Virus record (IMG/VR): IMGVR_UViG_2522572164_000007
From: a virus
Taxonomy: Duplodnaviria > Heunggongvirae > Uroviricota > Caudoviricetes
DNA: 42,200 bases
Strand: one strand, 5' to 3'
Below, piece after piece: positions 437 to 33,216 of this stretch. The position numbers and the translations under genes are program-made. The notes below the pieces were generated by a model. That model worked only from the letters and a program-made list of their open reading frames with translations, was not told the DNA's origin and did no database searches. Numbering within the stretch: the first letter of the stretch is position 1; each line of letters starts with the position of its first letter.

Positions 437-784
437 TTACAGCATGGTCAGGGAGGTCAGCAGCCGCTTGGGCTGTCGCCAGTCGATACCTTCCAGCAGC
501 ATCGCCAGCTGCGCCTGCGTAAGGAACACTTTGCCATCACGGGCTGACGGCCAGGCGAAGCGCCCACGCTCCAGCCGTTTGGTCAGGAGGCACAGTCCGT
601 CACCGGTGGACCACAGCAGTTTAACCTGACTGCCGCTGCGGCCCCGGAAAATGAAAACATGGCCGGACATGGGATCGTCTTTCAGCGCCGTCTGTACTTT
701 CGCAGCCAGGCCGTTGAAGCCATTTCTCATATCGGTGATACCGGCAACCAGCCAAATTTTGGTCCCGGAAGGTAACGGGATCAT
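437..784 (-). CDS. tnpB: IS66-family accessory protein TnpB (Orf2)
   Basis: 115-aa ORF MIPLPSGTKIWLVAGITDMRNGFNGLAAKV...; recalled IS66 Orf2 signature; 4-nt overlap with tnpA as is typical for IS66. Confidence 0.85.
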   Translation of the reverse strand: MIPLPSGTKIWLVAGITDMRNGFNGLAAKVQTALKDDPMSGHVFIFRGRSGSQVKLLWSTGDGLCLLTKRLERGRFAWPSARDGKVFLTQAQLAMLLEGIDWRQPKRLLTSLTML

Positions 785-1182
785 CGCTTCAGTTCCTGTA
801 TCAGCAGAGTCAGGAGCTTTTCGCTGACATTGCCATTGAAGCGGAGCGTCCCGTGCCGGAACGTTACCTCACAGCTGATACTGAGGGTTTCCGGGTCCTC
901 TGCGAGCGATTCTGGCTGTTCGGCAGCTGCATCGAGAGTCACAGGAAGTAGCTGGGGGCTCTCTGAAGAAGGTAATAGCAGCTTTCCCTCACGCAATTGT
1001 TGTCGCCATTTGAACAACAGATTGGCGTTAATGCCATTTTCAAGAGCAAGTTTTGAGATGGATATCCCGGGTTCACAGGAGGCAGCAACGAGCTGCTGTT
1101 TAAATTCGGGAGGATAATTAGGGCAGCCTTTTCGCCTGCCGGGATTCACATTTTTCTGCATATCTGACACTTTGGTTCCCAC
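781..1182 (-). CDS. tnpA: IS66-family TnpA (Orf1), helix-turn-helix protein
   Basis: 133-aa ORF at the expected position and size upstream of tnpB. Confidence 0.75.
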   Translation of the reverse strand: MGTKVSDMQKNVNPGRRKGCPNYPPEFKQQLVAASCEPGISISKLALENGINANLLFKWRQQLREGKLLLPSSESPQLLPVTLDAAAEQPESLAEDPETLSISCEVTFRHGTLRFNGNVSEKLLTLLIQELKR

Positions 1183-1515
1183 TACTTATTTGGTGGACAC
1201 CACTTTGTCTAATTCGTCAGATTCTGACCAGACGGTTCAGGCTGTACGCTTACCACTATTTTATCCCTGTTGAATTTGGTTAAGCCGGTGCAGACGAGCC
1301 GGGAAACGCACATCTGAACCGGCACAATAAAATACAATACAACCCCCTGTTACTGGAGATACGAATGGAATGACGAGGCAGCCTGTCAGTCACAGGGGGC
1401 TGTTGGCATAAAATCAACGGAAAGGCCACCAACACCGGAATTAAGCTCCACAGTCCCCGCACTGGCAATCCATTCCCGGGAAAGGCATTACCGCAAACTG
1501 CTCCGGAGGCAACCA

Positions 1516-1950
1516 TTACAGCCTCAGTAACGGATTATCAGCCCTGGCATCTTCCGACGGCACCTCCTGCCGCCCCCACGCCCTGCTGTATACCCCGGTA
1601 CCGCAGCGTGGGCAGCACTTTTCCCCCTCATAATCTTCGTCACACATCACACAAAACCACTTTCTCACCTTCACCGTATAATCCGGAACCGTCATGCCCT
1701 GCAGATGCAAACGACGGGCCTCTTTCTCTGCCGGGTCAAGCCAGGTACATCGCAGCAGGATTTTTTCAGCGACAGTCATCTGGTCATGTTCAAACCACGG
1801 TGGTTGTCCGTCATTGCCCCGCTGAAGTGTTAACGGGCATCCACAGGACACACAGCACAAAACGTCCTGTCGGTTGTGCTTCGCAGCTTCTTTCGCCGTA
1901 ACAAAATGGCCTTTGCTGTCATTCGCCATATAACAGTTCAGAATTCGCAT
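1516..1950 (-). CDS. Cys-rich hypothetical protein (putative zinc-ribbon), paralogue of the upstream gene
   Basis: ORF 1516..2037 trimmed to the ATG at 1950, which is preceded by AGGAGG. Shares CxxC...PWFEH...C..C...Y.GE..C..C motifs with 1938..2345. Confidence 0.5.
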   Translation of the reverse strand: MRILNCYMANDSKGHFVTAKEAAKHNRQDVLCCVSCGCPLTLQRGNDGQPPWFEHDQMTVAEKILLRCTWLDPAEKEARRLHLQGMTVPDYTVKVRKWFCVMCDEDYEGEKCCPRCGTGVYSRAWGRQEVPSEDARADNPLLRL

Positions 1951-2345
1951 ATTTCCTCCTGAGTTGTCCGGGGAATACTGAATCCTCCGGTCTGGCAGTG
2001 TGTGCAGTACTGCTCCCCATAATAATCGTGGTGACATTGTCTGCAGTGCCAGCTGGCTTTACGCACCACGGGTAAGGCATCCGGTACGAATTGCTGCAGA
2101 CGTTTAATCAACTGTATTTCTCTGCGCTCCGGCCTGACATAAGGGCACTGTTGACCGTGCTCTGTCAGCCTGTCGTCAGTGTGTTCAAACCAGGGAAGTT
2201 CAGTGTCGTATTGCGGATGGTATCTGAGTGCACTGCCACACAAGTGGCAGGTGTAGTTAGCATAAGGTGCGGCCTGTGCAGTACGGGCGCCCGTCAGACG
2301 TCCGTTGCCATCAAGAGCGATAAAGGATTTTGCGTACATAGTCAT
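1938..2345 (-). CDS. Cys-rich hypothetical protein (putative zinc-ribbon)
   Basis: 135-aa ORF with CHLCG...PWFEH...CRQCHHDYYGEQYCTHC; tandem with its paralogue, 13-nt overlap. Confidence 0.5.
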   Translation of the reverse strand: MTMYAKSFIALDGNGRLTGARTAQAAPYANYTCHLCGSALRYHPQYDTELPWFEHTDDRLTEHGQQCPYVRPERREIQLIKRLQQFVPDALPVVRKASWHCRQCHHDYYGEQYCTHCQTGGFSIPRTTQEEICEF

Positions 2346-2598
2346 ATACCTCAGCCGCCAGACGACACGCAGGCAACAGCCGTCCCGGTACGGGCAGCGT
2401 GGTCAGGGTGTGAATGGCGGTTCAGTTAAAATCTGGACTGGAGTTTGGGTAAAGCAGGCTGGTTGCTGTTACAGCACTGTGGTTGTCACACAATGGAACA
2501 CTGACGTAAAAAACAGTCAGTGGGCGAGTGGATACATCGTTGCCGCCAGACAACAACCCATACTTTTGGTTTGCCGGATATTGGCGCGCCAGTCGTGC

Positions 2599-3168
2599 TC
2601 AACTCCGGCTACAGCCAAAATTGCGCTCACCGGTGCAGTGAGCTTTGGTATGCTCCTTCGCCAGATAGTCAGCACGTTCCAGCACCTGCTGAAAGCCGGT
2701 GTCATCATTACGCGCCAGCCACACCGCCGGCCAGGCCGGAAAATGCACCAGCGTGGCATGGCACCCGACATCCACTCCCAGGGCACTGCACCACGCCTGT
2801 TTAATCATCCCGGCCAGAGACTCCGGAGCGCGGTAATCACCGGCACGACACCAGGTATCCCGGTTGACCAGCAGCATCAGGTGATAGTGTTTTTTACCTT
2901 TGCACTCCCCAAACTCCCGGGCCCAGACGTAATGCAGGGTTGTGGGATGCACGCGTTTACCTTCCCGATGCTTACGTTTCTGGTAAGCGTCGATTCGGGC
3001 TTTCAGGGCATTGATGAAGCGGGATATCACAGCTGCGTCCGTTGCTGCCGGTACATCCGGGAGACGCAGGTCAACCCGCAATGCCGTCAGGCGGGGATGA
3101 ACATTCAGTGCGTGCCGCACCGTCTCACGAATACGTTGCTGCCAGAAGGGGTTGTATTTGTAGGTCAT
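2599..3168 (-). CDS. YagK/YfjJ-like (inovirus Gp2 family) protein
   Basis: ORF 2599..3240 trimmed to the ATG at 3168 with a GGAGA RBS; family assignment is from memory of E. coli cryptic-prophage YfjJ/YagK proteins. Confidence 0.45.
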   Translation of the reverse strand: MTYKYNPFWQQRIRETVRHALNVHPRLTALRVDLRLPDVPAATDAAVISRFINALKARIDAYQKRKHREGKRVHPTTLHYVWAREFGECKGKKHYHLMLLVNRDTWCRAGDYRAPESLAGMIKQAWCSALGVDVGCHATLVHFPAWPAVWLARNDDTGFQQVLERADYLAKEHTKAHCTGERNFGCSRS

Positions 3169-3333
3169 GGTTAAATCTCCGTATGGTTCATACGGAATAG
3201 CCACGTATAGCGCGGCGATTTTTTTGATACCGATTTGCATTTCATTTGATACCGCTGAAAAACGCCGATACGCAACTTATTTGATACTAAATCGGCGCTT
3301 TTCTTTTGAGTTTTAGAATGAGTTTTTAAGCGC

Positions 3334-4071
3334 TCATTCACTCTCTTTCAAACCAGTTTTAACTGTTTGTGGTTTTGGGTAAGGGTGGACTTTGAATAGC
3401 TTTGTGTTGAGGCGTTTTCTGGCCCTCTTGTTCAGAAACCGGATGTAACGAAACTGTCGGAACTTATGCACACTGGCTCTGTCGATATTAGCCCTCAGAT
3501 GTTCACCTCGTTGTCCGCCTCGTTTAATGGCACTCCTGCAAATCTCGTGATACCACTCGCCATCAAGTTCATAGAATGTTGATTCATGGCTGCCTACATA
3601 ATCAAAATTGCTGGCCTGATACACGACACCAAGACAGCCACAACGCTCATCTGCAAACGACTGAACCCACTGTACCTGCGGATAAAGCTGCCTGATTAGC
3701 TTGAGCGCGTAACTGATTGCCCTTGATTCGGAGTTTCTCGGCATACAGTCATGCATCCATAGCCGGTTAAGCTCCATATATTCTCGGTTCTGCGTACCCG
3801 TTACGACGCGTGCACCACTGTTTGGGTTAAGGGCGTAACCCCATTGCATTACGCCAACAAGTTCCCGTTCTGAAAATATACCCAGATGAAGGTAGGAATT
3901 ATTTACGAAACGGTGGCTGTAATGTTTATTGACGATAACCAGTCTGGCCAGCCAGCAACTTATTGTCTCAACCCGCAACTCACGGGAGCCATAACCAACG
4001 ATATTGTCGTTATAGCGAATAAGTTCAGGCGTGCTGATGATACGGGATGTGACTTGCTTTCTGTTCCCCAC
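3334..4071 (-). CDS. mom: Mom-like DNA modification protein
   Basis: 245-aa ORF immediately downstream of, and overlapping, a Com-like zinc-finger gene at the far end of a Mu-like genome; size fits Mu Mom (about 230 aa). Start codon uncertain. Confidence 0.6.
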
Positions 4072-4225
4072 GACAGGATTTCCTTGTGTATGTGGGGTGC
4101 TCTGTGGCGCTCGGAGATGTGATTTGATTGAGGGTTTTACAGCGCGGACATTTTACTTCCAGATAACTGAAACTGGCCCGTGCCAGTAGCTTATTGCAGT
4201 GTCGGCACCGTATGTTTCGATACAT
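4025..4225 (-). CDS. com: Com-like zinc-finger translational activator of mom
   Basis: ORF 4025..4270 trimmed to the ATG at 4225 (GGAGG upstream). [30 protein letters not shown] resembles the Mu Com motif IRCKNCNKLL...CPRCK. Confidence 0.7.
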
Positions 4226-4261
4226 GGCCGCATAACCTCCTGCTTTGTTGTTGATGCCTTT

Positions 4262-4450
4262 CTCATGCAATCGATCGACAAAAACGATCGATTCGATTTG
4301 TTTAATTGATACAACAAATAGATTTAAAAGTCATCAACAATGATTCAGGGCGGTGATTATTTACTTAAAGAAACGAAGAGTTAGGTGGTGAAAACGATCA
4401 TAAAATGATCATTTTATTGACTTTTTATACAGTGAAGGTAGGATCGCGCG
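4262..4450 (-). promoter_or_regulatory. com-mom upstream regulatory region with clustered GATC (Dam) sites
   Basis: GATC at 4273, 4286, 4396, 4407 and 4442 (five in under 190 bp), directly upstream of com. Mu Pmom is known to be controlled by Dam methylation of upstream GATC sites that affects OxyR binding. Confidence 0.45.
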
Positions 4451-5121: not shown

Positions 5122-5301
5122 TTAAATCTGACCGGAGTCTTTCGGCTGCGGCATTACAGCACCGCTTTTTATCTTTTCCTCGGCAGCTGCATCAATTTTA
5201 TTTCGAAAATAATTGCGAATAATTTTATAACCACCGCTGACAAGCAACAGACAACAAACCACCGTGCAGAAATACAGCAGGCAGACGTTTATATATGTCA
5301 T
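5122..5301 (-). CDS. Hypothetical small membrane protein (59 aa; below the ORF-track size cutoff)
   Basis: My own translation of the reverse complement from ATG 5301 to TAA 5122: MTYINVCLLYFCTVVCCLLLVSGGYKIIRNYFRNK...; one hydrophobic helix; GAGG upstream; sits between the esterase and the 81-aa gene. Confidence 0.3.
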   Translation of the reverse strand: MTYINVCLLYFCTVVCCLLLVSGGYKIIRNYFRNKIDAAAEEKIKSGAVMPQPKDSGQI

Positions 5302-5358
5302 ATAAGCCTCACTCTTATTAACTGATGTTACAGCCGGATAAATTCCCGGCCGTCACGA

Positions 5359-7416
5359 TTATGCCGCAGGGGTATTAACCTCAAGGACAACGCTCTCAAA
5401 AGACACGCCATAAGTTGCCCCTTTGGTGACATCTGTCAGTGTCAGCGTATCTTTGGCAGGGGAAAGTGCATCTTTCACCATCTGGAATGCCTGGCCCGGA
5501 GTGCCATCCAGCACAGGCGTTACCTGGGCACTTCCCGCCGTAAACTTCAGGACAAGTGTATGCCACTGGTTATTGTAGGCTCCAAATGATCCCAGTTTCG
5601 TATTCCCCCCTGTTTTATGGTGCATCAGATTTAACTGGCCGCCTGTTGTCTGGAGATAATACGCCATCAGGAACGGTGTGCCTGTACCACTCATGGTTAC
5701 ACCTTCCGGGACCGTATCGGTGTGGAGGTAAATACCCAGAGCAAACTGGCCTTCTTTTACTTCACCTGACAGACGGAATTTACAGGTCAACTGACCACCA
5801 TGCTTCAGAAGTTCACCGGCTGCATCAGTTCCATGGGTAAGCGTCCAGGTTTTTCCGCTTTGTTTGGATACGGTCAACGCTTTACCTTCGTCCGTCAGCT
5901 GGATTGTACCATCTGTAATTTTCCAGCCCTGAGCCGGGGCTTCTCCTGCTGATGCTTTAAGTGAAAGCAGCGTACGGAGTGACGGGGATGTCGGATGGGG
6001 GGACTCACTGCCTCCTGGCTGACTACCTGTCGGCGCTTCCGGTTTCCCACCCGGCGCGGGCTGAGGCAGGGCTTCACCATCAGGGGCCACACCGGCAATA
6101 AATGCAGAGGTCAGACCTGCATATTTAAGAATTGCTGATGCAAAACGATCTGAGACCAGAAAACGGCGCGCCCAGGAGCTAAAATGGGTTGCCCTGGATG
6201 CTGTTGTCCAGTTGCCATCTCCCCGTGATTCCGCACCATAATACCCGGCAGAAGCGATATCCGGGTCGTGCTCCGGCAGGTTGGTCGCGGTTTTATTACC
6301 GAACTCATCGTGCATCAGTGGAACAAAGTGAATGTTCTCGGAAGCCCGGTTTTTATATCCGCTATAAATGGTTTCATATGCCGCCGGGTTCTTCTCTTTC
6401 CAGTCATAGGTTGTGTCACCACATAACCACGGCACACTGTCTGATGAACCACCAATACACTGACCGGAGAAAGCACCAAGATCCGCACGGAATTTTTTCA
6501 CCATCGCAGTAAACTGGGCACCATGCTGGGCCGGGGTCGCTTTAAGGTCTCCTTCCCCCTGAATCCATACGACAGATAACAGCACATTCTTTGGATTCGC
6601 CTCAAGTGCCGCTTTAGTTCGACTGACAAGATCCTGATACAGTGGGGTATCCACTCCCCAGCGTAGTGACGCCTCGGCTGCACCACTTGCCGGATCGAAT
6701 GAGCCAACTGCGCCGGTTGTAAAAGCAGAGCCGCCACGGGCACAGGGAACCAGTAAAATCCCGGCATCAGCAGGAATCACCGGTAATACTTTTTTCGCAA
6801 TATGAAGTCCCTGCCCCACACAACCATACTGCCCTTTTTTCAGGTCTGCTTTTGGATGGTTCAGCAGACTCATATTCTGAACATCATGAAGGCAGTGATC
6901 TGCTGGAATGATTTCATTGTATTTGCAGGGAATACCTCCGGGGGTTTGTGTATTCCTGCGTGCCAGCTGCATAATACGTGGATCAGGACGATCATAAGAA
7001 TCCGGAAGGGGCAACCCTTCACCATAAGATGAAGCATTGGACTGGCCGGCTATAACAATCACGTAATACCAGGAAGGGGAGCTGGAAGCCGTTTCATTTC
7101 CTGCCGGACGGGTATGTGTTTCTGCATTATCCCAGTCTGACGGTTCAGCAGTACCGGCAACATCAGCACTTAACGGAATGACAGCACCAATACCCGCTCC
7201 GGTAATTTCCACGTTCGGATCACCGGATACTGGCCTTACCCACAGGCAATCCTGTGTATTAAAACTGATGAGACAGTCAGCAAATGTCATTCCTCCTTTC
7301 GTTTCAGCAGGAGGAAAGGGAGCCTCAAGAAATGCCGCTGTACCACCGGAAACTTTAACGGTAAAGTTTCCGGGCATTGATGATAGTTGAACCCATTTGG
7401 ACGTCATAATATTCAT
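5359..7416 (-). CDS. Sialate O-acetylesterase, NanS-p-like (SGNH hydrolase) with extra N- and C-terminal domains
   Basis: 685-aa ORF with YVIVIAGQSNASSYGEG (GQSN block of SGNH esterases); overall architecture resembles the prophage NanS-p esterases of enterohaemorrhagic E. coli. Confidence 0.7.
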   Translation of the reverse strand: MNIMTSKWVQLSSMPGNFTVKVSGGTAAFLEAPFPPAETKGGMTFADCLISFNTQDCLWVRPVSGDPNVEITGAGIGAVIPLSADVAGTAEPSDWDNAETHTRPAGNETASSSPSWYYVIVIAGQSNASSYGEGLPLPDSYDRPDPRIMQLARRNTQTPGGIPCKYNEIIPADHCLHDVQNMSLLNHPKADLKKGQYGCVGQGLHIAKKVLPVIPADAGILLVPCARGGSAFTTGAVGSFDPASGAAEASLRWGVDTPLYQDLVSRTKAALEANPKNVLLSVVWIQGEGDLKATPAQHGAQFTAMVKKFRADLGAFSGQCIGGSSDSVPWLCGDTTYDWKEKNPAAYETIYSGYKNRASENIHFVPLMHDEFGNKTATNLPEHDPDIASAGYYGAESRGDGNWTTASRATHFSSWARRFLVSDRFASAILKYAGLTSAFIAGVAPDGEALPQPAPGGKPEAPTGSQPGGSESPHPTSPSLRTLLSLKASAGEAPAQGWKITDGTIQLTDEGKALTVSKQSGKTWTLTHGTDAAGELLKHGGQLTCKFRLSGEVKEGQFALGIYLHTDTVPEGVTMSGTGTPFLMAYYLQTTGGQLNLMHHKTGGNTKLGSFGAYNNQWHTLVLKFTAGSAQVTPVLDGTPGQAFQMVKDALSPAKDTLTLTDVTKGATYGVSFESVVLEVNTPAA

Positions 7417-7506: not shown

Positions 7507-8067
7507 TTATTTTTCCGAAACGCTCGCAGGATAATAACGATAAAGGGTTGAAAGGCCGATATCAAAAATAAGTGCCACCTGTCTTCGACTGACACCCCCG
7601 GCCAGTAAACGCCCGACCTGCTCGTATTGTTCCTGCGTGAGACGACGGGGTCTGCCGCCGGTTCGTCCCCTTTCACGGGCAGCTGCAAGACCAGCCCGTG
7701 TCCGTTCGACAATTAATTCACGCTCCATTTCTGCCAGCGCACCCATTATGTGAAAAAAGAAGCGCCCCATGGGGGTTGACGTATCAATGTTGTCAGTAAG
7801 ACTACGAAAATTTATCCCCTGTTGCTGTAATTCATCTGTCAGCGCAACAAGGTGGCGCATACTGCGCCCCAGCCTGTCCAGTTTCCAGACCATCAGTGTG
7901 TCACCGGGTTTTAGTTTCTTCAGTGCCCGCTTCAGTCCCGGCCGCTGTGTCGTTTTACCACTCATTTTATCTTCAAAAATCTGCTCACATCCTGCACATT
8001 CCAGCGCATTTCTTTGTAAACCTGTGTTCTGGTCATTTGTTGATACGCGTATATAGCCAATCAGCAT
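7507..8067 (-). CDS. gin: Serine recombinase, DNA invertase Gin/Hin/Pin/Cin family
   Basis: 186 aa; MLIGYIRVSTNDQNTGLQRNAL... is the resolvase/invertase catalytic N-terminus, with a C-terminal HTH (GRPRRL...STLYRY). Confidence 0.9.
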   Translation of the reverse strand: MLIGYIRVSTNDQNTGLQRNALECAGCEQIFEDKMSGKTTQRPGLKRALKKLKPGDTLMVWKLDRLGRSMRHLVALTDELQQQGINFRSLTDNIDTSTPMGRFFFHIMGALAEMERELIVERTRAGLAAARERGRTGGRPRRLTQEQYEQVGRLLAGGVSRRQVALIFDIGLSTLYRYYPASVSEK

Positions 8068-27115: not shown

Positions 27116-28770
27116 CCCCGATCAAATTCATGATATGCCTCATCGTCATCACGATAACCGCCCTCTATTGCCCGCGACCGCTCCGGCAGCGCCTGACAGG
27201 CTGATTCATCCAGGATGAAGCCCTCCATGTATGACGCCCGGTTTGCCATACAGAGCGCCACGGCAAAATCACCATGGCGGCGGGCGTTCACAGCCGTTGC
27301 GTTCTGGTCCTTCGTACGCCCCTTGTCGATTTGCGGGATACCGTTAACCACCTTCACATGGCGCAAATCATCAAGCGTGGTCTGATGGCGGGCGACGAGG
27401 ATATTCTGATCTTCAAACTCGGCCTTCAGTTTTGGCATCCACTCGCCGTACCACTTCGGCGATAACATCACGCTGTCGATGATGTCCGGGCCAAAGGCCA
27501 GCAGCGCGGCTTCGGCCAGATAGCCGCCGTTACCGGTGGCGTCGAACGCTGCACCAACCAGGGCCGGAACGCGGGTCAGGATGTACATCATCACCTGCTC
27601 CTGCTGGGCATATGGCAGGTTACGCAGCTCCACGCGAAACACCTCGCGTTTTGCCAGGGATTCAGTGATTTCCAGCAGCACAAAGCAGGAGAGGTCACCG
27701 GTGCGGGCAAAGTCTTCCCCGAAGCTGAAGCGGGAACGGGGATTTAACGCCTCTAAAAGCGGTTTTAAATGTTCTTCAGACCAGGTTAAAACCTCCGATT
27801 CACGCAGCCATGCGGCACGGCTGATGAAGTCGTCCGGGGCTTCAAACGTCAGAATCGGGATGTCGCGGATCATCGCCATTTCAATAAGCGCGTGAGGAAT
27901 ATAGGCACCGCCGGATTTTTTCGGGATACAGCCGTATTCCTCGTCGGCATCCTCACGGGTCGGGGCGTTTTTGTAGAGATCATCACGCCACTTCTGCTCG
28001 CTTTCCGGCGACCATTCGCGGCCGGTGACATAACAGATACGACGGTACAGCCCGTCCGCAATGGCATCATCCAGGGTAATGCGGTGGACGCTGTAATCCT
28101 TGCGCCCCTCGCGGGCTTCCTGAATGTACTGATTAAACAGATTATCGACGCCGTTATGCGTGGAGATAATACGCACGCGCGCGCCCCACATGGTGAGCGC
28201 CATTGCCGCCTTGAGAAGCTCATCCAGTGACTCGTGGAACGCGGCTTCATCAATCACCACATCCCCCTGAAGGCCGCGCAGGTTTGACGGACGGGAAGAC
28301 AGTGCCTGAATTTTGAATCCACTGTTCGGAAAGCGGATCATGTAGGTCAGAATTTCTTCTTTTTTATCCCGATCCCAGAAGGTCTGCTCATACACATCAG
28401 CATCTGCCAGCTGGTTAAAGGCACGGGAGAACAGTGCGCAGGCAGAAATATATTCCAGCGCCATCTCCTGCTTTGACCCCACATAAAACACATTGCGGCC
28501 ACCGCGCCGCTTCGGTTTTGCAGCGGTAATGACGTTACGCCCGGCTTCCGCCCAGGTAAGCCCGGTACGGCGGGATTTTTCCGCGATGCAGACCTCGCTT
28601 TCATCCTCAAACCAGCGGGCCTGATAATCCAGAAACACCGGCATATCACCGGGCAAATCAAGGCTGTCCGGCACATCCACGCCCAGCAGGGCTTTTTCAC
28701 CGGCCAGATCAATTTTGCGGGTGGAGACGGTATTCGTCAGTAAGGGTGAGAGTTCTTCGGCGTTATTCAT
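27106..28770 (-). CDS. Terminase large subunit (Mu gp28-like)
   Basis: 554-aa ORF; position and size; acidic nuclease-like segments. Confidence 0.75.
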   Translation of the reverse strand: MNNAEELSPLLTNTVSTRKIDLAGEKALLGVDVPDSLDLPGDMPVFLDYQARWFEDESEVCIAEKSRRTGLTWAEAGRNVITAAKPKRRGGRNVFYVGSKQEMALEYISACALFSRAFNQLADADVYEQTFWDRDKKEEILTYMIRFPNSGFKIQALSSRPSNLRGLQGDVVIDEAAFHESLDELLKAAMALTMWGARVRIISTHNGVDNLFNQYIQEAREGRKDYSVHRITLDDAIADGLYRRICYVTGREWSPESEQKWRDDLYKNAPTREDADEEYGCIPKKSGGAYIPHALIEMAMIRDIPILTFEAPDDFISRAAWLRESEVLTWSEEHLKPLLEALNPRSRFSFGEDFARTGDLSCFVLLEITESLAKREVFRVELRNLPYAQQEQVMMYILTRVPALVGAAFDATGNGGYLAEAALLAFGPDIIDSVMLSPKWYGEWMPKLKAEFEDQNILVARHQTTLDDLRHVKVVNGIPQIDKGRTKDQNATAVNARRHGDFAVALCMANRASYMEGFILDESACQALPERSRAIEGGYRDDDEAYHEFDRGCW

Positions 28771-29351
28771 CAGGCTTTACCCAACAGAATCCCCTTAATA
28801 CGGGACTCAAGCTGTTCACTCATCCCGTCCACGCCGCGCAGCTCGTCGGTGACCGCGTTTGCCATCTCTTCAGCAAATGCGGCCCGGATTTCTTTTTCAC
28901 GCTTAATGCTGCGCTCGGCGGCACTTTCCGCACGCTGTGCTGACAGGAGGATGTCTTTGATGAGGCGCATATCCACGTCGCTGTCGCTGTTCAGAGATTC
29001 GGTCGCGGCACGCAGGCGGCGGTACATCAGGGCGCGGGACATTTCCAGAATCAGCGCTGTGGTTTCACCGGTTGGCTTGTCCCCCAGTTCGGCCATCATG
29101 GCTTTTGTCTGCTCGCGTAAATCACGCAGGTTACGGGCAATCAGCTCATTACGGGAGGCTTCCCGGCTGATGGCCGCCGGTGAAAGCTGCTGCTCTTCCG
29201 GCAGGCCCGCCTCACGGATCAGACGGTTGATTTCCTCGCGGATCTGGACCTGCGTCAGACGTTTTTCACGCAGCATTTCCAGCAGCGGCTTACGGATGCT
29301 GTCGGGGAGCAAATCCACCTTGCGTACACGACCACGCGTCGGCTTGTCCAT
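28770..29351 (-). CDS. Terminase small-subunit-like protein (Mu gp27-like)
   Basis: 193-aa ORF immediately upstream of the large terminase gene. Confidence 0.55.
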   Translation of the reverse strand: MDKPTRGRVRKVDLLPDSIRKPLLEMLREKRLTQVQIREEINRLIREAGLPEEQQLSPAAISREASRNELIARNLRDLREQTKAMMAELGDKPTGETTALILEMSRALMYRRLRAATESLNSDSDVDMRLIKDILLSAQRAESAAERSIKREKEIRAAFAEEMANAVTDELRGVDGMSEQLESRIKGILLGKA

Positions 29352-29353
29352 CG

Positions 29354-29644
29354 TTACCCCCTTGCGCGTGGTTTCTTCACACCCGGAACGCAGGCCCGGC
29401 CTTCCGCCACATCCTGCCCCCGGCCGGTCAGCTCTGCGATGAAATAACCGTTAATCAGAACGCGTTTGCGCACCAGTCCCTGCTCGGCAAGCCAGGCAAT
29501 GTGGGTGTGAACGGTGTCGCGGGACACGCGGTGGCCGTAATCATCCAGACAGTCCTGGAGCACGGATTCACCCAGTTCACCGTTGTAATCTGCCAGCGAC
29601 CGCAGAATGACCAGACGCTGATCTTCAGTAATGAAATCACTCAT
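29354..29644 (-). CDS. Hypothetical protein (Mu gp26-like)
   Basis: 96-aa ORF; position. Confidence 0.45.
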   Translation of the reverse strand: MSDFITEDQRLVILRSLADYNGELGESVLQDCLDDYGHRVSRDTVHTHIAWLAEQGLVRKRVLINGYFIAELTGRGQDVAEGRACVPGVKKPRARG

Positions 29645-29949
29645 TGCGTTTTTTTCCTTACAGCCTGCTCCAGCAGCAGTTCGTTCTGATAGGAGACAGA
29701 GCGGAGCGTGGCGTTCGTGGTTTTCAGTTCACCCCGCAGGGTCACGATTTCCACATTCAGACGGTTGACCTCGGCTTCTGTCGGCAGTGACGACAGGCGG
29801 GTTTCCACCTTCTCAACGCGGTCGGAGAGTTTTTCAAAGGCCTCGCGGGGGACAAACGTTTTGCGCATCAGCGCCATGAATATCCCGCCAGCGGTTGCCG
29901 TCGCCGAAAGGATCGGCACAACATAATCTTTAACGATGCTGACCCACAT
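29641..29949 (-). CDS. Membrane protein with N-terminal transmembrane helix (Mu gp25-like; possible lysis accessory)
   Basis: 102 aa; hydrophobic VPILSATATAGGIFMALM followed by a coiled-coil-like region. Confidence 0.45.
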   Translation of the reverse strand: MWVSIVKDYVVPILSATATAGGIFMALMRKTFVPREAFEKLSDRVEKVETRLSSLPTEAEVNRLNVEIVTLRGELKTTNATLRSVSYQNELLLEQAVRKKTQ

Positions 29950-30157
29950 TACGGGCCTCCATGATGTTCTGGCAGTTCACACAACGGATGGCATCAGGCA
30001 CAGCAACAAGACGTGCGGCGGGGATCTCTCCGCCACAGTCCGCGCAGACACGTCTGCCCGGCGTATCCACTGCCTGGCGCTTACGTGTCAGCCGGTTACA
30101 AAGGGCGCGTTCTGATCCCCGCTCCATCACAGCCTGAGCACGATCTGAATCATCCAT
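29930..30157 (-). CDS. TraR/DksA-family C4 zinc-finger protein
   Basis: 75 aa; CADCGGEIPAARL...RCVNCQ four-Cys motif. Confidence 0.6.
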   Translation of the reverse strand: MDDSDRAQAVMERGSERALCNRLTRKRQAVDTPGRRVCADCGGEIPAARLVAVPDAIRCVNCQNIMEARNVGQHR

Positions 30158-30166
30158 ACCTTTTCC

Positions 30167-30538
30167 TTACTTCGTTTTTCCTGCCGGAACAGCAGGCGTT
30201 CCGGCCATATCAGTAAATTCATGTTGTCGCCGCGTCTCCAGACGACGAATACTGGCCTTGTCCACGTTGCAGTTCTTGATCACCGCCAGCAGTTGCAGGT
30301 TGTAAGTGACCGATGCCCCAAACGTGAACGGCTCCGGCGCAGGAGGGACTAGGCAGTCAGCCAGCCATTCAGCGGGGATCGGCACCGGCTTCACAGGCAC
30401 GTATTTCACAGACGGCCCGGCGCACCCGATCAGCCACATCATCAGGAACAGGGGCAGAGGCCGCAGGCACTGCTGCCAGCGACCGGCGGACAACGCTCTG
30501 CTGCCCCTCGCTGTGCTGAATGTTCTGTTGTTTTTCAT
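30167..30538 (-). CDS. Candidate o-spanin (outer-membrane lipoprotein; start uncertain)
   Basis: Lipobox LIGC after a hydrophobic stretch, then a Pro-rich periplasmic region; overlaps the candidate i-spanin in another frame. Confidence 0.45.
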   Translation of the reverse strand: MKNNRTFSTARGSRALSAGRWQQCLRPLPLFLMMWLIGCAGPSVKYVPVKPVPIPAEWLADCLVPPAPEPFTFGASVTYNLQLLAVIKNCNVDKASIRRLETRRQHEFTDMAGTPAVPAGKTK

Positions 30539-30869
30539 TCGTGGCCGCCTCACTGATTTGTGAAATGAGTTGCAGGGTGTGCTGCTGATTTGCCAGCACC
30601 TGACGCGCCTCATCCCGCTCACGCACAAGCACCTGATTATTGTCTTCAAGGCGCTGCGTCTTCTGGTGCATTCCCCATATCGCGGCAACCAGTACAGCGA
30701 TAATCCCCAGCGCCGCCATGCACGCCCCGGCAATCAGGGCCGGTAAGGCATTATTCACCGCAGCCACAGGACACCCCGTAACAGCAGTACCGCACACAGC
30801 AGCGCTATCATGATCGGTCGCCAGAAGCGGTTCAGACTTTCGGCAAATCGTAGCGACATAACCATTCAT
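30369..30869 (-). CDS. Candidate i-spanin (start uncertain)
   Basis: Hydrophobic LPALIAGACMAALGIIAVLVAAIW followed by a charged, Gln-rich coiled-coil-like region; directly downstream of the endolysin gene. Confidence 0.4.
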   Translation of the reverse strand: MNGYVATICRKSEPLLATDHDSAAVCGTAVTGCPVAAVNNALPALIAGACMAALGIIAVLVAAIWGMHQKTQRLEDNNQVLVRERDEARQVLANQQHTLQLISQISEAATNEKQQNIQHSEGQQSVVRRSLAAVPAASAPVPDDVADRVRRAVCEIRACEAGADPR

Positions 30870-31332
30870 CCGCCGAACGGCGGGCCTCAAGGCCGGGGAG
30901 CTTCACCCCCTTTGAATAAATCCAGCGGATATACTGCTTACAGGACGCGGGCATCTGCCCGGCATTGATCAGGCGCAGAAGCGTGGAGTTGCGAAAGTTC
31001 GTTTCACCGGCCCAGAAGATCCACGAAGCCAGCGCCACCGTCTGACCACGGGTAAGCGGCACCTGAACACGCCGATCAATGGCCGCAAAGGCCCATTTCA
31101 TGTCCTTTTCCAGTAGTTCCAGGCATTCTTCATCCGTCAGGGTCATACCCGGTTTCACATCCGGGCCGGTATGGCCGTAACAGATGGTGGGTGTACCGGT
31201 GGGATCGATATACGTGGAGTTTTCTTTCCCTTCCCAGTAACCGGTGTAATGCGTGGCAATCGTGAACGTCCCGGCACCGGCCAGAACAAGGGCAATCAGC
31301 TTTTTACGCAGTGGTGCGGGGAGTTTTGGCAT
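30832..31332 (-). CDS. lys: SAR endolysin (lysozyme, glycoside hydrolase family 24)
   Basis: 166 aa; N-terminal Gly/Ala-rich weakly hydrophobic segment LIALVLAGAGTFTIA; catalytic triad spacing E-x8-D-x5-T. Confidence 0.8.
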   Translation of the reverse strand: MPKLPAPLRKKLIALVLAGAGTFTIATHYTGYWEGKENSTYIDPTGTPTICYGHTGPDVKPGMTLTDEECLELLEKDMKWAFAAIDRRVQVPLTRGQTVALASWIFWAGETNFRNSTLLRLINAGQMPASCKQYIRWIYSKGVKLPGLEARRSADEWLCRYDLPKV

Positions 31333-31403
31333 TGTTACGCTGTCTCATGATGTTCTCTGAGTCAGCGTAACGGTGAAGGAAAGGCGGCAGGCTTTGCGGA
31401 ATA

Positions 31404-31829
31404 TCAGAAAAGTGGCGGTTGTGTTCTTGCCAGATGCAGACGGCGCTGTTCACGTATGACGGTATAAATCTGGGTTTCTGACATCCGGTAATGGCGGCGA
31501 AGGGATTCAATTTTCTCGCCCCGGTCCCAGCGCGAAAATATCTCATTGTTTCGCAGCTCGGCAAAGAGAGATTCCCCGACCGGCAGGTAATAACCCCGTC
31601 CGCCCATATAGGCTGCCTGAGCCGCAGCCACCTTGCGTGCCAGTTTGCCGGCCAGTACCGGCTCAATCCCCTGACGCTGAAGTTCTGCGCCGGTGACTTC
31701 AACCAGTTCTGACAGGGTCCGCGGCCAGTTCTTTTTGAGAACATCATCAGGGATGTCATCAAGGCGGTCGATAAGGGCGTGCAGTTGCTCACTGTCACCA
31801 CCAAACATGCTCATCTGAGTTTCTGCCAT
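31404..31829 (-). CDS. mor: Mor/C-family transcriptional activator
   Basis: 141-aa ORF immediately downstream of the GemA-like gene and upstream of lys, with a C-terminal HTH-like region. Confidence 0.7.
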   Translation of the reverse strand: MAETQMSMFGGDSEQLHALIDRLDDIPDDVLKKNWPRTLSELVEVTGAELQRQGIEPVLAGKLARKVAAAQAAYMGGRGYYLPVGESLFAELRNNEIFSRWDRGEKIESLRRHYRMSETQIYTVIREQRRLHLARTQPPLF

Positions 31830-31898
31830 ATCAGCCTCCGGTTCTCGCGTTCCCGGTAAGTTTAAAATAAAAATCCCGCGTTGTGGCGGGATTTGGGG

Positions 31899-32408
31899 TT
31901 AACGGGGAAGTGATTTTTCATACTGCCTGCAAACGGCGTCATACCCCATCAGCGTGCGTTCGGGCATTCCCATCGCGGCCAGCATTTTGCGGCGGTGCCA
32001 TCGCTTGAGACGCTCCAGCACATCTGAGGCCAGGGCGGGGTGTTGCTCCAGCCACTGCCAGTTTGCCACACCTTCGCCGCCGTTTTGCGCGGCCGTCTGC
32101 GATTTCACCCAGCGGTTAAGGGCGGTTTCCGCACCATCAGAGATAAAGCCCTGCCGGTGCATCACCTTCCAGATGGCGCGAATTTTAGCGGTCACCGTAC
32201 CCGGTTTTAAGGCCCGGTTAACCGGGTTCTGACGCACTTTAAAACCGCGTTTTTTGAAAACATCCAGCACGCGGGATAACTCATCCGGTGACATATCCCG
32301 GCAGCTGGTTTTGCCGGTGACCGCCAGTAGTACGGATGTGTAGGTTTCATCATCCAGGGCAAGCTCGCGTTTTGCCACATGAATGGCAGATATCAGTTTC
32401 CCTCTCAT
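31899..32408 (-). CDS. gemA: GemA-like protein (Mu gp16-like)
   Basis: 169-aa ORF; N-terminal ...IHVAKRELALDDETY... motif; position upstream of mor. Confidence 0.6.
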   Translation of the reverse strand: MRGKLISAIHVAKRELALDDETYTSVLLAVTGKTSCRDMSPDELSRVLDVFKKRGFKVRQNPVNRALKPGTVTAKIRAIWKVMHRQGFISDGAETALNRWVKSQTAAQNGGEGVANWQWLEQHPALASDVLERLKRWHRRKMLAAMGMPERTLMGYDAVCRQYEKSLPR

Positions 32409-32701
32409 GCTGTATCAACACTCCTGCGGATATGATAGGTATTATTTTCCCGATCGAGCTGAACCCGATACTCCGGAGGAATCACAAAAATATTAAAACC
32501 ATCATCAGTTTTTATTCTTGAGTAGCATTCCCCCTTATGATATCTGGCCAGTGTATTAATCAGAGAAGTCGCAGCCTGCCCAATCAGGTATTTTTTATGA
32601 AAAATACTGATAACTTTCCGGCACAGCCATCGTGTAATGACGAATGCACCGAAAAAGGATGTGATATATAAATACCAGAACAACTGCGAACTACTGTCCA
32701 T
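32405..32701 (-). CDS. Hypothetical membrane protein
   Basis: 98-aa ORF with N-terminal hydrophobic helix LFWYLYITSFFGAFVI. Confidence 0.45.
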   Translation of the reverse strand: MDSSSQLFWYLYITSFFGAFVITRWLCRKVISIFHKKYLIGQAATSLINTLARYHKGECYSRIKTDDGFNIFVIPPEYRVQLDRENNTYHIRRSVDTA

Positions 32702-32888
32702 TATCTTTCTCCTTATTCAGTCTTCTGCGGCATTCGGCACAGTCATCAGGGCTTTCAAATGTATCCGGCTCGCGATTATGAGCCAGATATAACCACCGTC
32801 CACATATACTGATATTTTCGCCTGTTTTAAAAAAATGATGCTTCCTGGCCATTAGTGGCCGCGCCCATCCAGCGGGTAGACTATTCAT
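32691..32888 (-). CDS. Hypothetical small Cys-containing protein
   Basis: 65-aa ORF with four Cys in a zinc-ribbon-like arrangement. Confidence 0.4.
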   Translation of the reverse strand: MNSLPAGWARPLMARKHHFFKTGENISICGRWLYLAHNREPDTFESPDDCAECRRRLNKEKDNGQ

Positions 32889-33216
32889 TTGCTTTATCCT
32901 CCATGCTGGACAGAATCATATGTATTAATGTCGGGCGTGGAGATATACGCATTTCATTAAGCGTCTGAAGGGCAGCAACAGCTGCCTGTTTATCGGTGCC
33001 TTTGGCAATTTCAGCAAGAGAATGCACAATCCATAATGGGCTTAACGCTACGGCTGAATGCAGAATCATGTCATCCATAATAATTTCTGGCATATCCCGT
33101 TTGTCACATTCTTTATCCATAAAAGAAACGATTTTTTCTGCATCTTCCGGTTTCATTCCTCCGGCGATGAGAATTTTACGATATTCATAAGACGATCTTA
33201 ATTCAATACTCATCAT
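32881..33216 (-). CDS. Hypothetical early protein
   Basis: 111-aa ORF, tightly packed in the early operon. Confidence 0.45.
   Translation of the reverse strand: MMSIELRSSYEYRKILIAGGMKPEDAEKIVSFMDKECDKRDMPEIIMDDMILHSAVALSPLWIVHSLAEIAKGTDKQAAVAALQTLNEMRISPRPTLIHMILSSMEDKANE

Follow-up and report, generated by a model that had tools for sequence, protein, structure and literature searches.

A probable Mu-type lysis module with no recognizable holin, and a conserved small membrane ORF, in a Mu-like prophage

The 42,200-nucleotide viral DNA stretch IMGVR_UViG_2522572164_000007 (Caudoviricetes), referred to here as the window, consists almost entirely of a transposable, Mu-like prophage whose reading direction is that of the minus strand. 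Its lysis cassette encodes a GH24 endolysin whose N-terminus is of the signal-anchor-release (SAR) type, an overlapped spanin pair, a TraR/DksA-type zinc finger and a DUF2730 protein homologous to the releasin of phage Mu. The order of these genes is that of Mu, and the window contains no recognizable holin. The locus probably serves late lysis in a Mu-like Escherichia coli prophage of the Sp18 type, working in the same manner as the phage Mu system. The only new point of the cassette is a conserved, unannotated gene for a membrane peptide of 34-36 amino acids, as the holin-less design itself has been known since 2022.

The lysis of Mu has been described by Chamblee et al. (2022, mBio, PMC9239132). 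The endolysin gp22 is of the SAR type, gp23 and gp23.1 are the spanins, and Mu has no holin. Release of gp22 requires gp25, a membrane-tethered cytoplasmic DUF2730 protein termed the ‘releasin’, and the dependence of gp22 on gp25 is conferred by its residues K6 and K7. The SAR endolysins of other phages are freed by depolarisation; dinitrophenol delays the lysis of Mu and does not trigger it. Three models have been put forward for the releasin: one of a protease, one of charge neutralisation, and one of a channel or chaperone. The survey in that study covered 34 active phages, in which the Enterobacterales were represented by members of Muvirus only and the Sp18-type lineage was not analysed individually (PMC9239132).

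A first-pass annotation of the window, made from the sequence alone, had proposed a SAR endolysin, an Rz/Rz1-style spanin pair and a single-helix membrane protein in a locus with no classical holin. It had also referred to a non-holin membrane factor reported to release the SAR endolysin of Mu, which agrees with the published role of gp25 (PMC9239132).

The endolysin

The endolysin gene (30832..31332, minus strand, as are all genes of the cassette and its neighbours described below) encodes a GH24 muramidase (PF00959, E-value 6e-37) homologous to Mu gp22 (39% identity, E-value 1e-32). Pattern matching located the triad E34-x8-D43-x5-T49, of which E34 and T49 are invariant and D43 nearly so across 55 homologues. 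The N-terminus reads MPKLPAPLRKK, with a net charge of +4, and continues into LIALVLAGAGTFTIATHY (residues 12-29). This segment has the character of a SAR domain: it is weakly hydrophobic, half of its residues (9 of 18) are Gly, Ala or Thr, and it is preceded by the four basic residues K3, R9, K10 and K11. The maximum Kyte-Doolittle value over 17 residues is 1.68, compared with 2.70 for the anchor helix of the i-spanin.

The SAR region aligns with the SAR domains of both Mu gp22 and phage 21 R, in support of the first-pass reading. Judged by sequence, the nearest solved structures are those of full-length phage 21 R (PDB 3HDE, E-value 1e-24) and RrrD of DLP12 (4ZPU), and the alignment to 3HDE covers residues 5-161 of the query, that is, through the proven SAR domain of R21. 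An AlphaFold2 model built from the 55 homologues (pLDDT 94) superposed over 161 columns on 3HDE with a TM-score of 0.86 and on 4ZPU with one of 0.85. In this model, helices 6-17 and 22-34 are packed on the body of the enzyme with block-mean pLDDT values of 84-97. The prediction fits an N-terminus that would be retained and refolded, not a discarded signal peptide.

The positive charge of the N-terminus is as high as that of Mu gp22. Most SAR endolysins possess one or two basic residues at the N-terminus, R21 having two (PMC9239132 for the general figure), and it has been reported that extra ones lock SAR domains in the membrane (PMC9239132). The two of R21, R6 and K7, align with R9 and K10 of the window endolysin. 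The additional charge relative to an ordinary SAR endolysin is consistent with a locked helix that would need help to leave the bilayer. In the comparisons presented here, locus L037 and most of the 80 genome loci were left out, as these encode non-Mu SAR endolysins with no DUF2730 gene.

The DUF2730 protein

The gene at 29641..29949 encodes a protein of 102 amino acids that belongs to DUF2730 (PF10805, E-value 7e-20; phrog_736, E-value 9e-32). The match is full length, with residues 6-97 on profile positions 3-101 of 102, and it is better than that of Mu gp25 itself (2.5e-13). BLASTP gave 35% identity to gp25 over 91 residues (E-value 5e-17). The single-helix membrane protein of the first-pass annotation is thus a member of DUF2730 over its full length.

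The protein consists of a hydrophobic segment (residues 10-28), an R29-K30 junction and a helical C-terminal domain of 74 amino acids. Among 12 close homologues R29 is invariant and position 30 is either K or R, in agreement with the RR/RK motif described at this junction in the family (PMC9239132). By the positive-inside rule only, the protein is predicted to have an N-out/C-in topology with the C-terminal domain in the cytoplasm. The AlphaFold2 model contains three helices (3-30, 35-54 and 58-101) and is of moderate confidence overall (pLDDT 75, pTM 0.37), being of high confidence only from about residue 40.

The position of the gene also follows that of Mu. Chamblee et al. (2022, PMC9239132) analysed 34 phages, and in every one the DUF2730 gene lies at most five genes downstream of the endolysin; in the window it is the fourth annotated gene after it, or the fifth with the small ORF described below. 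The gene order corresponds to Mu 22-23-23.1-24-25-26-27-28, and the DUF2730 gene is followed by homologues of gp26 (63% identity) and gp27 (57% identity). The suggestion in the first-pass annotation that the locus may be the same as that of Mu or a variant of it is thus upheld by both homology and synteny.

The search for a holin

All open reading frames (ORFs) of at least 25 amino acids in the window were scanned for hydropathy, and candidate membrane ORFs were searched against Pfam, PHROGs and NCBIfam. Within the prophage, a convincing hydrophobic helix was found in the endolysin, the small ORF, the two spanins, the DUF2730 protein, an ORF of 98 amino acids and a DUF1378 ORF. No match to a holin family was obtained among the membrane ORFs of the prophage in the window, and homologues of Mu gp19 and gp20 were not found in the window. 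The absence of a classical holin, as noted in the first pass, thus extends beyond the cassette to the rest of the prophage in view.

Two of these ORFs lie outside the cassette. The 98-amino-acid ORF (32405..32701, minus strand) is located in a low-GC stretch of the early region and matches the uncharacterised family phrog_17269. It contains one N-terminal helix followed by basic residues, which predicts an N-out/C-in topology; this is the topology class of the releasin, to which it has no homology. The second is the DUF1378 ORF (5122..5301). In lambdoid Shiga toxin (Stx) phages a pair of DUF1378 and SASA esterase genes is usually located just upstream of the holin. A lambdoid holin beside the DUF1378 ORF was considered and rejected, the downstream ORFs being soluble or on the other strand. 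Operationally, a holin is defined as being lethal upon membrane depolarisation with dinitrophenol (PMC9239132).

The spanins

The i-spanin gene (30369..30767) encodes a homologue of Mu gp23 (27% identity, E-value 1e-6) of the Rz/LysB-like type. It matches phrog_214, ‘Rz-like spanin’, with an E-value of 8e-33; this score and the hydropathy were taken on a shorter read from GTG 30758. An N-terminal transmembrane helix, with a Kyte-Doolittle maximum of 2.70 near residue 8 of that read, is followed by a periplasmic helical domain, and Cys120 and Cys125 are present in the C-terminal part. The most likely start is GTG 30767: in the alignment, diverged relatives have an ATG at this point, and the gene called in L123, a Salmonella locus, starts there too.

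A longer i-spanin ORF (30890..30369), starting at TTG 30890, ATG 30869 or the PGAP start GTG 30797, was rejected because the frame behaves as non-coding upstream of 30767 and the relatives start at the aligned ATG. In RefSeq the i-spanin is named ‘endopeptidase’ and begins at GTG 30797, and in another genome it begins at ATG 30719, within the helix. Both are at odds with conservation, and GTG 30797 is probably too far upstream.

The o-spanin gene (30167..30538) encodes an Rz1/LysC-like outer-membrane lipoprotein homologous to Mu gp23.1 (PF23793 LysC, E-value 6e-16; phrog_3001, E-value 7e-42), and gp23.1 matches the same Pfam family. The lipobox is LIGC followed by Ala, and the mature part of 85 amino acids contains 11 Pro. 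The start codon ATG 30538 is kept in all relatives examined. The signal peptide (30422..30538) is unusually long, with 39 residues, of which about 25 form a basic n-region ahead of a short hydrophobic core; this layout is kept in the relatives along with the ATG. In RefSeq (L040, NZ_CP020106) the LysC start is placed at GTG 30409, past the lipobox Cys, a truncation by which the signal peptide is lost and which likewise disagrees with conservation.

The two spanin genes share 170 nucleotides (nt). Starting within the i-spanin gene in another frame, the o-spanin gene extends 202 nt beyond the end of the former (30369), hence the arrangement is the overlapped one of Mu and P2 and not the embedded one of lambda. 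The Rz/Rz1-style pair of the first-pass annotation stands on the family matches (phrog_214 and PF23793); its description as embedded does not.

The small membrane ORF between endolysin and i-spanin

The first-pass annotation counted three membrane proteins and missed a further single-helix ORF. An unannotated ORF (30755..30865) overlaps the 3′ end of the endolysin gene (stop at 30832), and its own stop overlaps the start region of the i-spanin. The read of 36 amino acids from ATG 30865 is MVMSLRFAESLNRFWRPIMIALLCAVLLLRGVLWLR. The probable start is ATG 30859, giving 34 amino acids, which is favoured by better spacing to an upstream GGCGGA and by the presence of a start codon at that position (codon 3) in 53 of 55 related loci. 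The ORF is present in all 55; the other two loci are L043, open with an upstream start, and L025, a fusion.

The ORF is conserved, with constraint acting at the protein level. Relatives from at least five enterobacterial genera, including Escherichia (E. coli), Citrobacter, Edwardsiella, Serratia and Salmonella, keep the frame open and its layout unchanged. Invariant residues occupy twelve positions, among them W34 and those of a C-terminal LRG-x-LWL. Over the 60 nt not shared with another gene, the frame of the ORF has a pN/pS of 0.52, compared with 1.12 and 2.06 in the other frames. In a simulation in which the observed substitutions were scattered randomly, the amino-acid similarity kept in this frame exceeded random in 8 of 8 pairs (p <0.0002 to 0.02), against p values of 0.03-0.98 in the other frames. 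A codon-position test on the variable columns was not significant (p 0.07-0.2). Taken together, the small ORF is likely to be a real gene.

The product has one hydrophobic helix, with W15 and W34 on its flanks. The only non-hydrophobic residues of the helix are one Cys and one Arg, and the lack of a polar face argues against a pore. The window sequence had no match in Pfam, PHROG or NCBIfam. The Serratia version gave a sub-threshold match to PF11351 (E-value 0.031, 15 bits against a cut-off of 24.8), which was treated as noise. In a database of 5.8 billion proteins just four unnamed clusters matched the 44-amino-acid version from locus L031 used as the query, and a metagenome scan returned close relatives only. 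No similarity above shuffled controls was seen to Mu gp19, Mu gp20, S21-68, TisB or the 98-amino-acid ORF. Similarity to DUF1378 was marginal (21 of 500 shuffles). The ORF is missing from the Mu-proper loci; Mu has no room for it, as the genes for gp22 and gp23 overlap.

In the viral contig L025 (approximately 3850..4070), a 1-nt insertion (AAAG to AAAAG) joins the endolysin frame to the part of the small ORF that codes for its C-terminal helix. The insertion probably arose by mutation or as an error of assembly. The idea of a programmed frameshift leading out of the endolysin frame and into the small ORF was rejected, as there is no conserved slippery site and the A-run is missing in the diverged group.

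The location of the ORF argues for some part in the envelope steps of lysis. It is conceivable, if rather doubtful, that Sp18-type prophages carry a fifth lysis gene, encoding a translationally coupled, single-pass peptide of 34-36 amino acids that helps to control lysis. Such a peptide could be, for example, a miniature membrane trigger, or could pair with or restrain the SAR helix, the releasin or the helix of the i-spanin. Were this so, the holin-less design of Mu would have a variant with an added membrane component.

Mechanism of lysis and alternative explanations

The proposed course of lysis follows that of Mu. Late transcription would be turned on by the Mor/C-family activator encoded upstream. 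The GH24 endolysin would then be exported via Sec and held in the inner membrane in an inactive form by its SAR helix and the basic residues on the cytoplasmic side. The DUF2730 protein, in its predicted N-out/C-in orientation, would promote the exit of the SAR helix from the bilayer, whereupon the freed endolysin may refold and degrade the cell wall. Finally, the complex of i-spanin and o-spanin would disrupt the outer membrane, and a holin would play no part. In this scheme, we infer the requirement for the DUF2730 protein, the membrane topologies and the timing from the Mu system.

Several observations weigh against a mechanism identical to that of Mu. In the alignment with gp22, the critical K6 and K7 face A6 and P7, so that no basic pair stands at these positions, and R9 aligns with Mu K9, a residue irrelevant in Mu. 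As K6 and K7 are not matched by position, releasin dependence is not readable from homology. The cytoplasmic domain of the DUF2730 protein has a net charge of +3 and no His (there is none in the whole protein), compared with a net charge of -1 and two His in Mu gp25, whose cytoplasmic domain has been described as predominantly anionic (PMC9239132). Within S-H-Q-x-E-L-L-L-E, the most conserved motif of DUF2730, H87 (Mu H84) is replaced by Tyr in the window and in 19 clade loci; the 35 loci with His include Mu, Serratia, Salmonella and Citrobacter. In addition, the ORF at the repressor end is cut by the edge of the window and a few hundred bases of the prophage are out of view, although a holin is not expected there. 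Lastly, the small ORF could be an unrecognised membrane-active trigger.

This last point leads to the first of three alternatives, all of which are improbable. The cassette would not be holin-less if the peptide of 34-36 amino acids were a miniature trigger, similar to a pinholin or a depolarising toxin, which collapses the membrane potential and sets the timing of lysis. Its protein-level conservation in at least five genera, its tight coupling within the late lysis operon, where it overlaps the endolysin stop and the i-spanin start, and its Trp-flanked hydrophobic helix would suit such a role, and SAR endolysins elsewhere are freed by depolarisation (PMC9239132). Against this, the window peptide matches no holin family, the nearest approach being the sub-threshold Serratia match to PF11351 (E-value 0.03), its helix lacks a polar face, and it is no more similar to Mu gp19, gp20, S21-68 or TisB than are shuffled sequences. 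It is also far shorter than the characterised holins known to us. Mu, which does not have the ORF, lyses by means of the releasin alone, and its lysis is delayed by dinitrophenol (PMC9239132).

The second alternative, with an equally slim chance of being correct, is that the DUF2730 protein is irrelevant to lysis in the window. The endolysin would release itself or have a cleavable signal peptide, and the DUF2730 protein would serve, for example, in packaging or morphogenesis. The DUF2730 gene does overlap the gp26 gene and adjoin the packaging genes, Mu K6 and K7 are not kept by position, and on direct reading of the sequence A18-G19-A20 (A-x-A-like) and T24-I25-A26 may be taken as signal-peptidase sites. 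The homology of the endolysin N-terminus to two proven uncleaved SAR domains, those of Mu gp22 and R21, and its high-confidence prediction as part of the folded enzyme speak against cleavage. Self-release is disfavoured by the four N-terminal basic residues, compared with one or two in most SAR endolysins, added residues of this kind being reported to lock the helix. Furthermore, the DUF2730 protein belongs to the sequence type of the proven releasin.

It is very unlikely that the module of this clade is decaying or inactive, a prophage remnant with its releasin disabled by the His-to-Tyr change at position 87 (Tyr in the window and 19 clade loci, His in 35 others), since that His has no demonstrated role, all ORFs of the cassette are intact, the same alleles occur in 125 records at ≥99% identity and, if the window is of the Sp18 type, Sp18 of O157 Sakai has been judged intact with its lysis function conserved (PMC2669165). 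A Mu-type module in which the DUF2730 protein assists release of the SAR endolysin is the preferred reading of the locus.

Flanking genes and regulation

Directly upstream of the lysis genes is a transcription activator of the Mor/C family (31404..31829; PF08765, E-value 3e-32), with 40% identity to Mu C and 27% to Mu Mor. In the interval from gemA to the endolysin gene, no other gene of the Mor family was seen. A strong terminator-like hairpin (31871..31894, minus strand), consisting of a 9-bp stem and a T-run, separates gemA from the activator. In comparison with the Mor and C of Mu, which have genes 18-20 between them, the single activator and the hairpin suggest a shorter regulatory cascade. 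An Rfam search of 28000..33000 gave no match.

Between the o-spanin and DUF2730 genes, at the position of Mu gp24, lies the TraR/DksA zinc finger that the first-pass annotation had correctly named. It is a C4-type protein of 75 amino acids (29930..30157; PF01258, E-value 2.5e-12; TIGR02419, E-value 4e-22; phrog_54), with weak similarity to Mu gp24 (E-value 0.04). The protein is not known to have a role in lysis. The winged-helix-like homologue of Mu gp26 (29354..29644; 63% identity, E-value 2e-39; NF050184, E-value 3e-33) marks the point at which the lysis block ends and the packaging genes begin. This is followed by the homologue of gp27 (57% identity to Mu gp27) and then by an ORF at the position of gp28.

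The prophage and its setting

Pfam searches identified GemA, the Mor-family activator, Mu gp27 and the Mu Gp11 C-terminal domain among the proteins of the window, and a Gin-like invertase and Mom were also identified. Direct reading suggests a com gene beside mom. Large ORFs occupy the positions of MuA, MuB and gp28, the last being of 554 amino acids. At the DNA level the lysis region is too diverged to be matched to phage Mu, except in gene 26.

The 1.8-kb lysis region shares 100% identity with E. coli 13E0780 and 99.9% with a strain of O157:H7. Among 5426 complete genomes of E. coli, 231 contain the region, and the cassette alleles recur in 125 records at ≥99% identity. We infer that the prophage is of the Sp18 type of O157 Sakai. 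If so, the in silico assessment of Sp18 as intact, with its lysis function scored as conserved (PMC2669165), applies here also.

A copy of the lysis region with 98.8% identity (2.6-kb query) is present in LC727881.1 and LC727895.1, the genomes of Stx2c- and Stx1a-converting phages. The segment around it carries the annotation of an inserted Mu-like phage, one prophage thus lying inside another. Shiga-toxin-producing E. coli commonly contain this lineage, which can be located inside Stx prophages.

A cargo block (5122..7416, minus strand) is situated between gin (7507..8067) and com/mom (4025..4270 and 3334..4071). It encodes a SASA/DUF6645 esterase of 685 amino acids, read by us as NanS-p-like, and the DUF1378 membrane protein of 59 amino acids (PF07125, E-value 9e-24). 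To the left of Mom is non-Mu DNA (437..3240), taken to be a host island or other element that received the prophage. It contains IS66-family orf1/orf2 (PF01527 and PF05717), two tandem paralogues with DUF7828 and a zinc ribbon (1516..2037 and 1938..2345) and a YagK/YfjJ-family protein (2599..3240).

Significance

A second, diverged natural pair of endolysin and releasin would offer ready tests of the models for the releasin, the mechanism of which is unsolved. If the pair in the window, with its Tyr87 and net-positive domain, is functional, this argues against the models of a His-dependent protease and of an acidic microenvironment. The mode of lysis of this lineage also bears on the release of both phage and toxin. 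As a candidate for an additional lysis factor, the small membrane ORF lends itself to inexpensive tests. Current annotation of the cassette misses this ORF, truncates the o-spanin and mis-starts the i-spanin.

Comparison with known systems

Homology of the endolysin to R21 of phage 21 (PDB 3HDE/3HDF) and RrrD of DLP12 (4ZPU) extends over the full length and takes in the SAR domain, and the predicted fold agrees with that of the active full-length form at TM-scores of 0.85-0.86. In phage 21, release is governed by the two-helix pinholin S21-68 encoded beside R, whereas no such gene is found in the window. The N-terminus of R21 has two basic residues (R6 and K7) compared with four in the window endolysin.

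The lysB/lysC genes of P2 are similar to the spanin genes of the window in that they are overlapped and encode an o-spanin of the LysC family (PF23793). In P2, the holin (Y) and LysA are located upstream of or around the endolysin; nothing comparable to Y or LysA was found in the window.

The small ORF resembles Mu gp20 (39 amino acids, one helix) in size and layout, as each has a few polar residues at the N-terminus and then a hydrophobic helix towards the C-terminus. The gene for gp20 lies in the middle operon upstream of C, whereas the small ORF is inside the late lysis block. It has been reported that gp20 has no holin activity and is dispensable for lysis (PMC9239132).

The locus differs from Mu in several respects. 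The lysis proteins share 27-39% identity with those of Mu, and the additional membrane ORF of 34-36 amino acids is inserted between endolysin and i-spanin. The basic residues of the endolysin are K3, R9, K10 and K11, compared with K6, K7 and K9 in Mu, and the SAR helix contains two Gly where that of Mu has a Gly-rich run. The cytoplasmic domain of the DUF2730 protein is +3 with no His, against -1 with two His. The zinc finger is a true member of the TraR/DksA family, whereas Mu gp24 falls below the threshold of that family. Homologues of gp18-20 are absent, and one Mor-family activator lies between gemA and the endolysin gene.

Other features are shared with Mu. Gene order, strand and neighbours are the same, with a Mor/C-family activator upstream and gp26, gp27 and a gp28-position ORF downstream. 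Both systems comprise a GH24 endolysin with a SAR N-terminus, an overlapped LysC-type o-spanin, a C4 zinc finger and a full-length DUF2730 protein with an RK/RR junction, and both have no holin-family protein.

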